NCBI RefSeq assembly: GCF_003334255.1
Contig: NZ_QOWU01000044.1
Direction: 5' to 3' (one strand)
Origin: Escherichia coli
GTDB lineage: Bacteria; Pseudomonadota; Gammaproteobacteria; Enterobacterales; Enterobacteriaceae
Length of the DNA: 46,463 bases
Position numbers and translations under genes: made by a program. How positions within the stretch are numbered: the stretch's first letter is position 1; every line of letters starts with the position of its first letter. Below the pieces are notes generated by a model, which saw only the letters and a program-made list of their open reading frames with translations, did no database searches and was not told the origin of the DNA. This document shows, in pieces, positions 2,419 through 46,329 of the stretch.

Positions 2419-3621
2419 TTAACTGGCTTTTTTAATATGCGGAAGGTCGAACGCTTTGCGCAGCGCCCGAACAAACGCTTTATCGTGGCAGATAGTTTTG
2501 CCAGGGCTGTCAGAAAGTTTCGCCACCGGTTTACCGTTACACTCTACCAACTTAATCACAATATTCAGGGGTTTTACCTGGGGGATATCGCAGGTCAGGC
2601 GAGTCCCAATACCAAAACTTAATTGCACGCGGGAAGAGAAGTGGCGGTATAGCTCAACCGCTTTGCGTAAATCCAGATTGTCAGAGAAAACCAGCGTTTT
2701 ACTCTGTGGATCAATTCCCAGCTTTTCATAATGTGCAATGGCTTTTTCACCCCATTCAACCGGGTCGCCAGAGTCATGACGCAGGCCCTGATACCGACTA
2801 GCGAACTCGACACCGAAATCACGCAGGAAAGCATCCATAGTGATGCAGTCGGTTAATGCAATGCCAAGTTGGTCGGGATACTCTTCCAGCCAGGCAGCAA
2901 GTGCAGCTCGCTGGCTGTTGGCTAGATCCGGGCTGATTTGCTGATGTGCCTGGAACCATTCGTGTGCCTGTGTTCCCATCGGCGTGAGGGAAAGCCGACG
3001 CGCCAGATCGTAGTTGCTGGTGCCCACAAACCAGGATTCCTGTTGCAGACGCTTAACGATGGTTTCTTGTACTTCGCGAGAAAAACGGCGACGGGTGCCA
3101 AAATCCATCAGATGGAAGCGCGACATATCAAGACCGGCGGTTAACGCCGAGAAGTCGACTAATTTGCTTTCCAGCGTGTCGAGGGCTTGCGCAACGTCGG
3201 CCTGCGGTGAGCGATAGCGATGTACCATTTCACTGATAACCGCCAGCAAAGGAACTTCCCAGAGGATGACTTCACGCCACGGGCCGCTTAAACGAATATC
3301 CAGCTTGCCATTATCGTTGGACACGGTGACTTGTTCCGGGTTAAAGCGGAACTCGCGTAACCAGTTAAGATAGTCGGCCTTAAAGAAAGGCAGGGCAGAA
3401 AGCCACTGATATTCATCATCCTGCAGGCGCAGGTGCTGCATCGCCTGAACCTGTTCACGAATAGCATCGGCATAAATACCCAGCAGATCGTCACCTCGGC
3501 AACGAAACTCCGCCGCGACATGCACATCGTAATAGTGATGAAACACGGCTTGCTGCATATGCAACTTATAAGCATCTGTATCCAGCAACGAGTGCAGAAC
3601 AGGAGAAGCGAATTGTGTCAT
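2419..3621 (-). CDS. pncB: Nicotinate phosphoribosyltransferase
   Basis: Translation [31 protein letters not shown]... (400 aa); true start is the internal Met of the 416-aa track ORF. Confidence 0.95.
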
Positions 3622-3650
3622 AGGTGCGCAGTAGCGTCCTCGTACAGGAG

Positions 3651-3668
3651 CGTTTAGTACAATAAACA
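3651..3668 (-). promoter_or_regulatory. Candidate NadR operator in the pncB promoter
   Basis: Inverted repeat cGTTTA-gtacaa-TAAACA lies 30-47 bp upstream of the pncB start. This resembles the TGTTTA-N6-TAAACA NAD box as I recall it; recognised from memory only. Confidence 0.45.
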
Positions 3669-3886
3669 TCTTCAGGAACTGCTGGAGTATACCTTGTTTC
3701 GCAATTTATTGAACCCCGATCACACCATATGCCACCTTTCTGGTCGATGGCATTACGCGGTGTATGTTATAAAAATGTAGCAATAAAGGCGTTTGTACCT
3801 GAAAAGATGAAGATTCTGCATAGCGCGATTTACGCAACAGGAATAGACTGAACACCAGACTCTATAAAAGATGCTAAAGGTTATTT

Positions 3887-6499
3887 ATGACTCAACAGCC
3901 ACAAGCCAAATACCGTCACGATTATCGTGCGCCGGATTACCAGATTACTGATATTGACTTGACCTTTGACCTCGACGCGCAAAAGACGGTCGTTACCGCG
4001 GTCAGCCAGGCTGTCCGTCATGGTGCATCAGATGCTCCCCTTCGTCTCAACGGCGAAGACCTCAAACTGGTTTCTGTTCATATTAATGATGAGCCGTGGA
4101 CCGCCTGGAAAGAAGAAGAGGGCGCACTGGTTATCAGTAATTTGCCGGAGCGTTTTACGCTTAAGATCATTAATGAAATAAGCCCGGCGGCGAATACCGC
4201 GCTGGAAGGGCTTTATCAGTCAGGCGATGCGCTTTGCACCCAGTGTGAAGCCGAAGGTTTCCGCCATATTACGTATTATCTCGACCGCCCGGACGTGCTG
4301 GCGCGTTTTACCACCAAAATTATTGCCGATAAAATCAAATATCCCTTCCTGCTTTCCAATGGTAACCGCGTTGCGCAAGGCGAACTGGAAAACGGACGCC
4401 ATTGGGTACAGTGGCAGGACCCGTTCCCGAAACCGTGCTACCTGTTTGCGCTGGTGGCAGGCGACTTTGATGTACTGCGCGATACCTTTACCACGCGTTC
4501 TGGTCGCGAAGTAGCACTGGAGCTGTACGTCGATCGCGGCAACCTTGATCGCGCGCCGTGGGCGATGACCTCGCTGAAAAACTCCATGAAATGGGATGAA
4601 GAACGCTTTGGCCTGGAGTATGACCTCGACATCTATATGATCGTCGCGGTGGATTTCTTCAATATGGGCGCAATGGAGAATAAGGGGCTGAATATCTTTA
4701 ACTCCAAATATGTGCTGGCCCGCACCGACACCGCCACCGACAAAGATTACCTCGATATTGAACGCGTTATCGGCCATGAATATTTCCATAACTGGACCGG
4801 TAACCGAGTGACCTGTCGCGACTGGTTCCAGCTCAGCCTGAAAGAAGGTTTAACCGTCTTCCGCGATCAGGAGTTCAGCTCTGACCTTGGTTCCCGCGCA
4901 GTTAACCGCATCAATAATGTACGCACCATGCGCGGATTGCAGTTTGCAGAAGACGCCAGCCCGATGGCGCACCCGATCCGCCCGGATATGGTCATTGAGA
5001 TGAACAACTTCTACACCCTGACCGTTTACGAGAAGGGCGCGGAAGTGATTCGCATGATCCACACCCTGCTTGGCGAAGAAAACTTCCAGAAAGGGATGCA
5101 GCTTTATTTCGAGCGTCATGATGGTAGTGCAGCGACCTGTGACGACTTTGTGCAGGCGATGGAAGATGCGTCGAATGTCGATCTCTCCCATTTCCGCGGT
5201 TGGTACAGCCAGTCCGGTACACCGATTGTGACCGTCAAAGACGACTACAATCCGGAAACCGAGCAGTACACCCTGACCATCAGCCAGCGCACGCCAGCCA
5301 CGCCGGATCAGGCAGAAAAACAGCCGCTGCATATTCCGTTTGCCATCGAACTGTATGATAACGAAGGCAAAGTGATCCCGTTGCAGAAAGGCGGTCATCC
5401 GGTGAATTCCGTGCTGAACGTCACTCAGGCGGAACAGACCTTTGTCTTTGATAATGTCTACTTCCAGCCGGTGCCTGCGCTGCTGTGCGAATTCTCTGCG
5501 CCAGTGAAACTGGAATATAAGTGGAGCGATCAGCAACTGACCTTCCTGATGCGTCATGCGCGTAATGATTTCTCCCGTTGGGATGCGGCGCAAAGTTTGC
5601 TGGCAACCTACATCAAGCTGAACGTCGCCCGTCATCAGCAAGGGCAGCCGCTGTCTCTGCCGGTGCATGTGGCCGACGCCTTCCGCGCGGTGCTGCTCGA
5701 TGAGAAGATTGACCCGGCACTGGCGGCAGAAATTCTGACTCTGCCATCCGTCAATGAAATGGCTGAACTGTTCGATATCATCGACCCGATTGCTATTGCC
5801 GAAGTACGCGAAGCACTCACTCGTACTCTGGCGACTGAACTGGCGGATGAGCTGCTGGCTATTTACAACGCGAATTACCAGAGCGAGTACCGCGTTGAGC
5901 ATGAAGATATTGCAAAACGCACTCTGCGTAATGCCTGTCTGCGCTTCCTTGCTTTTGGTGAAACGCATCTGGCTGATGTGCTGGTGAGCAAGCAGTTCCA
6001 TGAAGCGAACAATATGACCGATGCGCTGGCGGCGCTTTCTGCGGCGGTTGCCGCACAGCTGCCATGCCGTGACGCGCTGATGCAGGAGTACGACGACAAG
6101 TGGCATCAGGATGGTCTGGTGATGGATAAATGGTTTATCCTGCAAGCCACCAGCCCGGCGGCGAATGTGCTGGAGACGGTACGTGGTCTGTTGCAGCATC
6201 GCTCATTTACCATGAGCAACCCGAACCGTATTCGTTCGTTGATTGGCGCGTTTGCGGGCAGCAACCCGGCAGCGTTCCATGCCGACGATGGCAGTGGTTA
6301 CCAGTTCCTGGTGGAAATGCTTACCGACCTCAACAGCCGTAACCCGCAGGTGGCTTCACGTCTGATTGAACCGCTGATTCGCCTGAAACGTTACGATGCC
6401 AAACGTCAGGAGAAAATGCGCGCGGCGCTGGAGCAGTTGAAAGGGCTGGAAAATCTCTCTGGCGATCTGTACGAGAAGATAACTAAAGCACTGGCTTGA
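3887..6499 (+). CDS. pepN: Aminopeptidase N
   Basis: 870-aa ORF beginning MTQQPQAKYRHDYRAPDYQITDIDLTFDL, containing the HEYFHNWTG zinc-binding motif. Confidence 0.97.
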   Translation: MTQQPQAKYRHDYRAPDYQITDIDLTFDLDAQKTVVTAVSQAVRHGASDAPLRLNGEDLKLVSVHINDEPWTAWKEEEGALVISNLPERFTLKIINEISPAANTALEGLYQSGDALCTQCEAEGFRHITYYLDRPDVLARFTTKIIADKIKYPFLLSNGNRVAQGELENGRHWVQWQDPFPKPCYLFALVAGDFDVLRDTFTTRSGREVALELYVDRGNLDRAPWAMTSLKNSMKWDEERFGLEYDLDIYMIVAVDFFNMGAMENKGLNIFNSKYVLARTDTATDKDYLDIERVIGHEYFHNWTGNRVTCRDWFQLSLKEGLTVFRDQEFSSDLGSRAVNRINNVRTMRGLQFAEDASPMAHPIRPDMVIEMNNFYTLTVYEKGAEVIRMIHTLLGEENFQKGMQLYFERHDGSAATCDDFVQAMEDASNVDLSHFRGWYSQSGTPIVTVKDDYNPETEQYTLTISQRTPATPDQAEKQPLHIPFAIELYDNEGKVIPLQKGGHPVNSVLNVTQAEQTFVFDNVYFQPVPALLCEFSAPVKLEYKWSDQQLTFLMRHARNDFSRWDAAQSLLATYIKLNVARHQQGQPLSLPVHVADAFRAVLLDEKIDPALAAEILTLPSVNEMAELFDIIDPIAIAEVREALTRTLATELADELLAIYNANYQSEYRVEHEDIAKRTLRNACLRFLAFGETHLADVLVSKQFHEANNMTDALAALSAAVAAQLPCRDALMQEYDDKWHQDGLVMDKWFILQATSPAANVLETVRGLLQHRSFTMSNPNRIRSLIGAFAGSNPAAFHADDGSGYQFLVEMLTDLNSRNPQVASRLIEPLIRLKRYDAKRQEKMRAALEQLKGLENLSGDLYEKITKALA

Positions 6500-44888: not shown

Positions 44889-44948
44889 TGGCGGAAGCGC
44901 AGAGATTCGAACTCTGGAACCCTTTCGGGTCGCCGGTTTTCAAGACCG
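44889..44948 (-). tRNA. serT: tRNA-Ser(UGA) 3'-terminal 60-nt fragment; not a complete tRNA (5' acceptor, D-arm and half the anticodon stem are missing); prophage attachment core remnant
   Basis: Reverse complement CGGTCTTGAAAACCGGCGACCCGAAAGGGTTCCAGAGTTCGAATCTCTGCGCTTCCGCCA matches the 3' part of serT. Upstream sequence (44949 onward) has no segment able to pair with the acceptor 3' strand. Confidence 0.85.
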
Positions 44949-45089
44949 AAGAAAAACAAATGAAAATCAGTGTAATACGTGAATCTGCTGAAAATTTAAT
45001 TAAATTTAACACCAAGAAAAATCAAGGTGTTAGGAAGTTGCTCATAGCTAGTATACCAAGTATTTTTGCCAGAAAATTTTCTGTATTGC

Positions 45090-46109
45090 CTACTTGCTAA
45101 CCACGAGCGGCAGATCCAGTGTTGGTGTGATTTTTGTTTTACGATCGTAAATCAACACCTGATTTTCTGTTTTATGCCCGCTGAAAATTTGTTTGTCGCG
45201 ACTGCTGCCTTCGTAATCTGAGATCCCCTTGGCTTTTATGTCGTGAAAATTGCACCCGAACGGAACGCCAACTTTTTGCTCGGCTGAGCGTTTAGCCTGA
45301 TTCCACCAGTTGTTCAGCGTTTTAGCTATGACTTTCCCGCCTTTGGTTGTATTGATCACATATTCGCATGTACAGGAAGATACATTTCGGGCTAACTGGA
45401 TCGCTGTACGTAATCGCGGTGACCATTCCTTGATTTGTTTGGTGCCGGTTTTGTTTTGCTCAATGTAGATCCCTTTATCCATAATATCCTGCCATTTCAA
45501 CTCAAGCACATCACCGAGCCTTGCCGCACAGAGATAGGAAATCTCCATTGCAATGCGTAACTGTGGAATTGCTTCCGCATATATCGCTGCATACTGTTCA
45601 TCGGTGATGTAAACAGTGCGGGCTTTAAGAGAGAATTTTCTGACTCCTTTACATGGGTTATTCTTCACGTATCCACGCTCATATCCCCACCCGTATACTC
45701 GACTCAGGCTTGCCAGTTCATGATTTGCCTGGGTCTTGCTCTCAAGCCCTCGTTTATCCATGAAAATTCTTACCTGCTCAGTTTTGACATTATCAGCAAG
45801 CACTTTTCCGAATACCATCAGCAACGCCTTCTGATGTTGTCGATAATCTTTTTGGGTTCGGGGGGCCAGTTCTGTAAATGCAGGGGAGTCCATAAACATG
45901 TGCCATAATTTAGCTACGGTCATTATGTTGTGGAGTTTTGCTTTTTCCAGTTCATAATTTTGCCAGACTTTAGCTACGCTGGTTTTCCGCACTCTTCCTA
46001 GCCCTATAGTTCTTGTACTTCCTTCTGGTTTCCACACGTAACTGTAACCATTCGATCTAACCCGCGGTGGCAGTACATTATCTTTTTTATTTTTTCTTGG
46101 TCTTCCCAT
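45090..46109 (-). CDS. int: Phage tyrosine integrase (lambda Int family)
   Basis: 339 aa; N-terminal MGRPRKNKKDNVLPPRV resembles the lambda Int arm-binding N-terminus; C-terminal region has an R...H..R...Y catalytic pattern (LGDVLELKW, HDIKAKG, SGHKTENQVLIYDR). Confidence 0.92.
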   Translation of the reverse strand: MGRPRKNKKDNVLPPRVRSNGYSYVWKPEGSTRTIGLGRVRKTSVAKVWQNYELEKAKLHNIMTVAKLWHMFMDSPAFTELAPRTQKDYRQHQKALLMVFGKVLADNVKTEQVRIFMDKRGLESKTQANHELASLSRVYGWGYERGYVKNNPCKGVRKFSLKARTVYITDEQYAAIYAEAIPQLRIAMEISYLCAARLGDVLELKWQDIMDKGIYIEQNKTGTKQIKEWSPRLRTAIQLARNVSSCTCEYVINTTKGGKVIAKTLNNWWNQAKRSAEQKVGVPFGCNFHDIKAKGISDYEGSSRDKQIFSGHKTENQVLIYDRKTKITPTLDLPLVVSK

Positions 46110-46329
46110 TGTTCAGTGCCTCAAAATCGGGTTCAGCAGAAACCAGTTCAGATGTTTTTGGCATCGTTGTCAGTCCGTGTGGAATATCCCTGCGTAGAAC
46201 TATTGGTTCGTTTTTAGGACCGATTACAAATGGGATGCCGTGCAGTCTTAACTGGTGTTGCTGTTTTGTGTATCGCTCGTATTTCGTGATCTCTTTAATC
46301 TCTGCTGGAGATAGAGTTAATTCGTACAT
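46087..46329 (-). CDS. xis: Excisionase-like protein
   Basis: 80 aa, MYELTLSPAEIKEI...NNGKTKKK; sits upstream of int and overlaps its start by 23 nt as in lambda xis-int; loosely lambda Xis-like at both termini. Confidence 0.65.
   Translation of the reverse strand: MYELTLSPAEIKEITKYERYTKQQHQLRLHGIPFVIGPKNEPIVLRRDIPHGLTTMPKTSELVSAEPDFEALNNGKTKKK

Follow-up and report, generated by a model that had tools for sequence, protein, structure and literature searches.

An inverted repeat in the transcribed leader of the Escherichia coli gene pncB most probably serves as the NadR operator of the pncB promoter, a reading drawn from sequence comparison to which we assign a probability of about 0.9. The repeat, a NAD box with the plus-strand sequence CGTTTAGTACAATAAACA, occupies positions 3651–3668 and consists of the half-sites CGTTTA and TAAACA on either side of a GTACAA spacer, and it is defined by sequence, by a matrix score and by conservation. 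On the pncB strand the candidate operator reads TGTTTATTGTACTAAACG and extends from −47 to −30 relative to the ATG, 29 nt 5′ of the start codon (3621, minus strand) and within the spacer that separates pncB from pepN. The motif match alone is suggestive, and the location of the box together with its conservation carries the case convincingly. NadR control of pncB is already known, and the box is almost certainly the site that has been described. Since the 1990s both this control and the consensus sequence of the NAD box have counted as textbook knowledge; the pncB NadR site was reportedly discussed by Penfound and Foster in 1999 and by Gerasimova and Gelfand in 2005, and we take the pncB site curated in RegulonDB/EcoCyc and RegPrecise to be exactly these 18 bp.

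The pncB–pepN locus

The window, by which we mean the whole analysed stretch of 46,463 nucleotides, is collinear with E. coli K-12 MG1655 from 73 to 44948 at 99.8% identity and is E. coli chromosome. RefSeq annotation and NCBIfam equivalog matches identify the gene on the minus strand at 2419–3621 as pncB, encoding nicotinate phosphoribosyltransferase of 400 aa (TIGR01514, 621 bits), and the gene on the plus strand at 3887–6499 as pepN, encoding aminopeptidase N (TIGR02414, 1250 bits). The two genes diverge from a 265-bp spacer (3622–3886), and both identities given to this region by a first-pass annotation made from the sequence alone are upheld. A 901-bp stretch around the NAD box is 100% identical to many complete E. 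coli genomes and is carried by all 5,426 of them, and pncB and pepN are annotated at this site in 5,426 of 5,426 complete E. coli genomes in RefSeq.

The ends of the window depart from K-12. Positions 1–72, the 3′ end of ompF, gave no blastn alignment to K-12, a mismatch that probably reflects ompF allelic variation. At the other end, collinearity stops at 44948 inside the tRNA-Ser gene serT, and the right end (44891–46463) is not K-12-like: a prophage end takes over at 44949, with genes for a tyrosine integrase, a DUF4224 protein and an exonuclease. The window retains no more than the 3′ part of serT, and ARAGORN reports no tRNA in it; the opposite end of the prophage, beyond the window, presumably regenerates an intact serT. 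The same serT/prophage junction occurs in 745 of the 5,426 E. coli genomes. Elsewhere in the window, a PyrD leader (Rfam RF02373; 17964–18037, plus strand; 97.9 bits) directly 5′ of pyrD is the sole Rfam match above its gathering score.

A NadR-like inverted repeat upstream of pncB

NadR recognizes the consensus TGTTTA-N6-TAAACA (PMC2330245; PMC2330246), and the pncB box is identical to it at 11 of 12 core positions. The right half-site (TAAACA, 3663–3668) is a perfect match, and the left half-site (CGTTTA, 3651–3656) deviates only by a C at 3651, so that both the inverted repeat and the replacement of the consensus T by C are present as initially annotated. The adjoining GTA (3657–3659) completes the extended half-site TGTTTAGTA, which the pncB box has in common with the proximal nadB box, the Enterobacter nadA box and the niaP site of P. 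mirabilis.

We assessed how readily such a repeat arises by chance. With at most one mismatch to the NadR consensus, the pncB box is the sole match in the 46-kb window; with at most two mismatches the window shows no enrichment, three matches being seen against 1.86 expected. Shuffling the mononucleotides of the 265-bp spacer 200,000 times produced a core box with at most one mismatch in 310 cases (0.16%). We further scored the box, as the first-pass annotation had proposed, with a symmetrised position weight matrix built from four sites other than pncB: the E. coli sites at nadA (TGTTTAGCATATAAAACA), nadB distal (TGTTTAGCAACTGTAACA) and nadB proximal (TGTTTAGTAAATTAAACA), and the niaP NadR site of P. 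mirabilis (TGTTTAGTATACTAAACA; PMC2330245). The pncB box scores 16.1 bits of a possible 27.4, within the range of 12.9–24.4 bits that the known sites reach in leave-one-out scoring, on a matrix that is thin, with four independent sites, and discriminates poorly. The runner-up position in the spacer reaches only 8.3 bits. The corresponding P value of 1.4e-6 per position translates into approximately 3.5e-4 sites expected in the spacer and approximately 6.6 in a 4.6-Mb genome, a genome-wide number that makes the motif by itself not decisive.

Two further comparisons mark the reach of this kind of evidence. The sequence TCTTTAGCATTCTTAACA at 16190–16207, in the region of ycbU that encodes the signal peptide, scores 16.4 bits, slightly above the pncB box; with two core mismatches and a position within a coding sequence we take it as a chance match and not as a NadR site, and that it outscores the pncB box makes the limits of the small matrix evident. 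When 18-mers of the spacer were compared without bias with the region upstream of nadB, the pncB box came out as the best match (15/18), but 6 of 60 shuffles equal it, and in the same comparison with the nadA upstream region the pncB box is not the best match. Since 10% of shuffles reach the nadB result, we set this comparison aside as too weak to count as evidence for a NAD box.

Conservation across Enterobacteriaceae

We compared the pncB loci of 80 Enterobacteriaceae species, one locus from each, with PncB identities of 82–98%. The divergent neighbour is pepN in most of these loci, and the spacer is typically close to 265 bp. A NAD box is present at −47 or −46 in 54 of the 80 species, and in these all 12 half-site bases occur without substitution, as does the GTA of the extended half-site (54/54). 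Variation within the box is restricted to the three spacer bases that adjoin the other half-site, whereas the approximately 11 nt between the transcription start and the box are only 40–70% conserved. Within E. coli, identity over a 99-bp segment with the box, the transcription start and the −10 element reaches 99% or more in 5,387 of 5,426 genomes.

The remaining 26 species have no box at this place. They include Klebsiella, Raoultella, Trabulsiella, the Cronobacter group, Franconibacter and Siccibacter, as well as Atlantibacter, Mangrovibacter, Superficieibacter and Pseudescherichia. Klebsiella pneumoniae and Cronobacter sakazakii, representatives of two of these box-less lineages, retain the nadA box, which shows that a NadR regulon exists there and that pncB does not belong to it by way of a −47 site. 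pncB is thus a lineage-specific member of the NadR regulon. This patchy distribution agrees with a published regulon reconstruction, which predicts NadR control of pncB in 6 of the 11 Enterobacteriales genomes it covers (PMC5343134 supplement).

Position of the box relative to the pncB and pepN promoters

A genome-wide map of transcription starts by Kim et al. 2012 places the pncB start at 989,637 of NC_000913.2, where 180 reads mark it and the leader measures 58 nt (PMC3415461, supplement file 2). The upstream sequence given in that map (…GGTATACTCCAGCAG; its end also given as …AAGGTATACTCCAGCAG) is identical to the window, where the start falls at 3679 on the minus strand. An invariant −10 hexamer, TATACT (3686–3691, minus strand), lies 7 nt 5′ of the mapped start, and GGTATACTCC at this position is kept in essentially all of 81 aligned sequences. 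Farther upstream, the block GTGTGATCGGGGTTCAATAAA (approximately 3705–3725, minus strand) is nearly invariant over the 80 species and contains TTCAAT (3708–3713, minus strand), which conservation suggests as the likely −35 element, a weak one with 3 of 6 matches and a 16-bp spacer. A consensus promoter scan of 3500–4000 called no promoter, and the pncB promoter was recovered through conservation and the published start-site data. We also considered a CRP site at the TGTGATC/TGTGA of the GTGTGATCGGGGTTCAATAAA block and rejected it; judged by eye, its second half-site matches at 2 of 5 positions and its centre at about −37.5 is nonstandard.

With transcription starting at 3679, the NAD box covers +12 to +29 (centre +20.5) and lies in the transcribed leader. 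Its initial description as immediately upstream of pncB accordingly stands with respect to the ATG, 29 nt away, with the refinement that the box is downstream of the mapped start and not upstream of the promoter. A site at +12 to +29 is a normal position for a repressor.

On the opposite strand the same map records four weak pepN starts, at 3671 (5 reads), 3780 (12 reads), 3856 (7 reads) and 3887 (7 reads) (PMC3415461). The pepN promoter best supported in those data lies at 3765–3780 on the plus strand; its start at 3780 follows an extended −10 element, TGtTATAAA (3765–3773), in a conserved block and yields a 107-nt UTR. In the pepN leader, 3789–3916 on the plus strand resembles the Rfam family PepN_thermometer (RF02779), but its 21 bits (E = 0.16) fall short of the gathering score of 83; the genomic position is that of the family, yet the match is too weak to call.

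The minor start at 3671, of uncertain significance with its 5 reads, bears on what the repeat does, as a −10-like hexamer TACAAT (3658–3663) lies inside the NAD box (feature 3658–3671, plus strand). The repeat might accordingly have another function in DNA, as the −10 element of this pepN-directed start or as the site of another regulator, with its likeness to a NAD box incidental. TACAAT has 5 of the 6 bases of the −10 consensus and the start lies directly past the box, but its 5 reads compare with 180 for pncB, and a −10 hexamer leaves the invariance of the outer half-sites (TGTTTA, TAAAC) in 54 species unexplained. The hexamer itself partly varies, with the plus-strand spacers GTACAT, GTAAAA, GTAGAT and GTACAG found in some species. 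We know of no other enterobacterial regulator with the NAD-box consensus, which counts against a different DNA-binding protein, and we consider another DNA function very unlikely. If the box is a NadR operator, NadR bound there may also silence the minor start at 3671.

Overlap with a conserved 5′-UTR block

The box overlaps a second conserved element. On the pncB strand the block TAAACGCTCCTGTACGAGGACGCTACTGCGCACCT (3622–3656, minus strand), defined by alignment, shares the last 5–6 bases of the box and has the form GAAACGCTCC-TGTGA-GAGGA-TGCTACTGCGCACC-ATG in 81 of 81 sequences, with or without a box. The last five box bases on the pncB strand, AAACG, are part of this block, and the overlap accounts for that part of the box conservation without NadR. 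The non-consensus base C3651, a G on the pncB strand, is likewise invariant in all 81 sequences, box-less ones included, because it falls in the overlap with this apparently older 5′-UTR block. In species that lack the box, the corresponding sequence is …TGATGGAAACGCTCC….

A convincing conserved RNA structure was not found in the block, the consensus fold of the alignment reaching only −2.3 kcal/mol, and Rfam has no family at the pncB 5′ UTR. There is no Shine-Dalgarno sequence near the pncB AUG; the only GAGG lies 18 nt upstream, too far for a normal ribosome-binding site. We rejected an in-frame ATG at 3669 (416-aa ORF) and a coupled upstream ORF, as a 1-nt indel ahead of the pncB start codon disrupts the frame across genera and most genera have TTG at 3669.

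The transcribed position of the repeat and its proximity to this block raise the prospect that it acts in RNA, as a small hairpin in the pncB 5′ UTR (+12 to +29) that affects mRNA stability or translation. The repeat is transcribed, the start being at −58, and a 6-bp stem can form, but this weak hairpin reaches only −2.6 kcal/mol (z = −1.05), which 30 of 200 shuffles equal. It is missing from the minimum-energy fold of the whole UTR, and that fold has no more stability than those of shuffled sequences (z = −0.05). The arms show no compensatory changes; they are invariant and identical to the consensus of the non-homologous nadA and nadB promoters, and box-less species retain the rest of the UTR. 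A hairpin function is on these grounds still less likely than another role in DNA. Equally improbable is an AT-rich palindrome that arose by chance and has no function: some 6–7 sites of equal score are expected per genome and one occurs in the window inside the ycbU coding sequence, but the repeat has a low probability within the spacer (0.16% by shuffling, 3.5e-4 by matrix), stands before one of the few NAD genes and has half-sites that do not change in 54 species whereas the non-coding bases around them do, and location and conservation exclude pure chance.

For the preferred reading as a NadR operator, the overlap with the 5′-UTR block offers a possible origin of the imperfect half-site. 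In a pncB gene tree rooted on Mangrovibacter, box-less lineages are basal, and parsimony gives a box-less root with four changes; the early-branching box-less lineages with TGATGGAAACGCTCC are Mangrovibacter, Atlantibacter and the Cronobacter group. The tree has no support values, and we accordingly treat the gain of a box over an older leader element as a tentative proposal, with somewhat less than even odds that the pncB NAD box is a lineage-specific addition over an older conserved 5′-UTR element. The lineages of Escherichia, Salmonella, Citrobacter, Enterobacter, Kosakonia and Kluyvera may in that event have turned the upstream part into TGTTTATTGTACTAAACG, and if the box is a later addition, C3651 would be fixed as part of the older element and not for tuning NadR affinity.

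Candidate alternative NadR sites

Other repeats in the family resemble NadR sites at different positions. Nine Klebsiella, Raoultella and Trabulsiella loci (L036, L039, L050, L054, L055, L057, L058, L061 and L063) have an invariant near-palindrome, TGTTCAATATATTAAACT, at approximately −155 from the pncB ATG. It carries two core mismatches, scores 18.1 bits with the four-site matrix and sits at the edge of an insertion of approximately 62 bp between the −35-like element and the −10, the rest of which varies. Judged from its sequence, this repeat could be an independently evolved NadR site, that is, a case of binding-site turnover. Enterobacter sp. Ag1, which has no −47 box and has a 414-aa ORF on the same strand upstream instead of pepN, carries a perfect NAD box, TGTTTAGTACTCTAAACA, at −197 from pncB (locus L076, 2804–2821). 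This box is unrelated to the −47 box yet also stands 5′ of pncB, and we count it in favour of a NadR operator.

Predicted mechanism of repression

The sequence match at 11 of 12 core positions, the score of 16.1 bits, the invariance in 54 species and the standing of pncB as a literature target together support NadR repression of pncB, as the first-pass annotation had suggested. The box lies by the NAD salvage gene pncB at a place where binding could interfere with RNA polymerase. A 2025 report counts pncB among the genes that NadR represses in E. coli and Salmonella, and its electrophoretic mobility shift assays covered the nadB and nadA-pnuC promoters only (PMC12421817). Repression of pncB by NadR is also stated in PMC2330245, and NAD is the co-repressor of NadR (PMC2330245; PMC2330246). 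In E. coli K-12, nadR, which lies outside the window, gives a full-length match (residues 1–409) to the trifunctional NadR equivalog NF005988, and the window's own strain presumably carries the gene as well.

At high NAD levels, NadR with its NAD co-repressor would bind both half-sites through its N-terminal helix-turn-helix domains. Because the site spans +12 to +29, just downstream of the sigma-70 promoter, bound NadR would overlap the downstream footprint of RNA polymerase and could block open-complex formation, promoter escape or early elongation, lowering the output of nicotinate phosphoribosyltransferase. When NAD falls, NadR would leave the DNA and salvage would be de-repressed. We infer both this steric mechanism and the occupancy of the exact pncB box sequence by NadR.

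To a known regulatory interaction the analysis contributes small additions: the placement of the box in the leader at +12 to +29, a deviation from consensus that falls on an otherwise invariant base, the patchy membership of pncB in the regulon and signs that the Klebsiella clade may use alternative sites. The locus may offer a small case study of a new operator fitted into an already constrained leader.

Comparison with known NAD regulatory systems

The pncB box closely resembles the NAD boxes of nadA-pnuC and nadB in E. coli and Salmonella. All share the 18-bp palindrome TGTTTA-N6-TAAACA and the extended half-site TGTTTAG(T/C)A, and the regulon logic is the same, with NAD-dependent repression of genes for NAD synthesis and salvage. 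Each orthologous NAD box is very strongly conserved, its own deviation from consensus included; the nadA box, for example, reads TGTTTAGCATATAAAACA in six of the seven genera that were compared, and Enterobacter departs from it by a single spacer change. What sets the pncB box apart is a T-to-C change, read on the plus strand, in the outermost base of one half-site. The position also differs, the nadA box lying at approximately −54 to −37 of its own start (5 reads in the Kim 2012 data) in contrast to +12 to +29 for the pncB box, and nadB has two boxes where pncB has one.

Outside the NadR regulon, NiaR, NrtR and NadQ control pncB or pncA-pncB through palindromic operators in other organisms (PMC2330245; PMC2330246). 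These regulators belong to unrelated families, use other motifs and respond to other effectors such as niacin and ADP-ribose, and they are not expected in E. coli; the pncB site matches the NadR motif. With the catalogued pncB NadR site of RegPrecise-type reconstruction, the box described here has gene and regulator in common and shows no essential difference.
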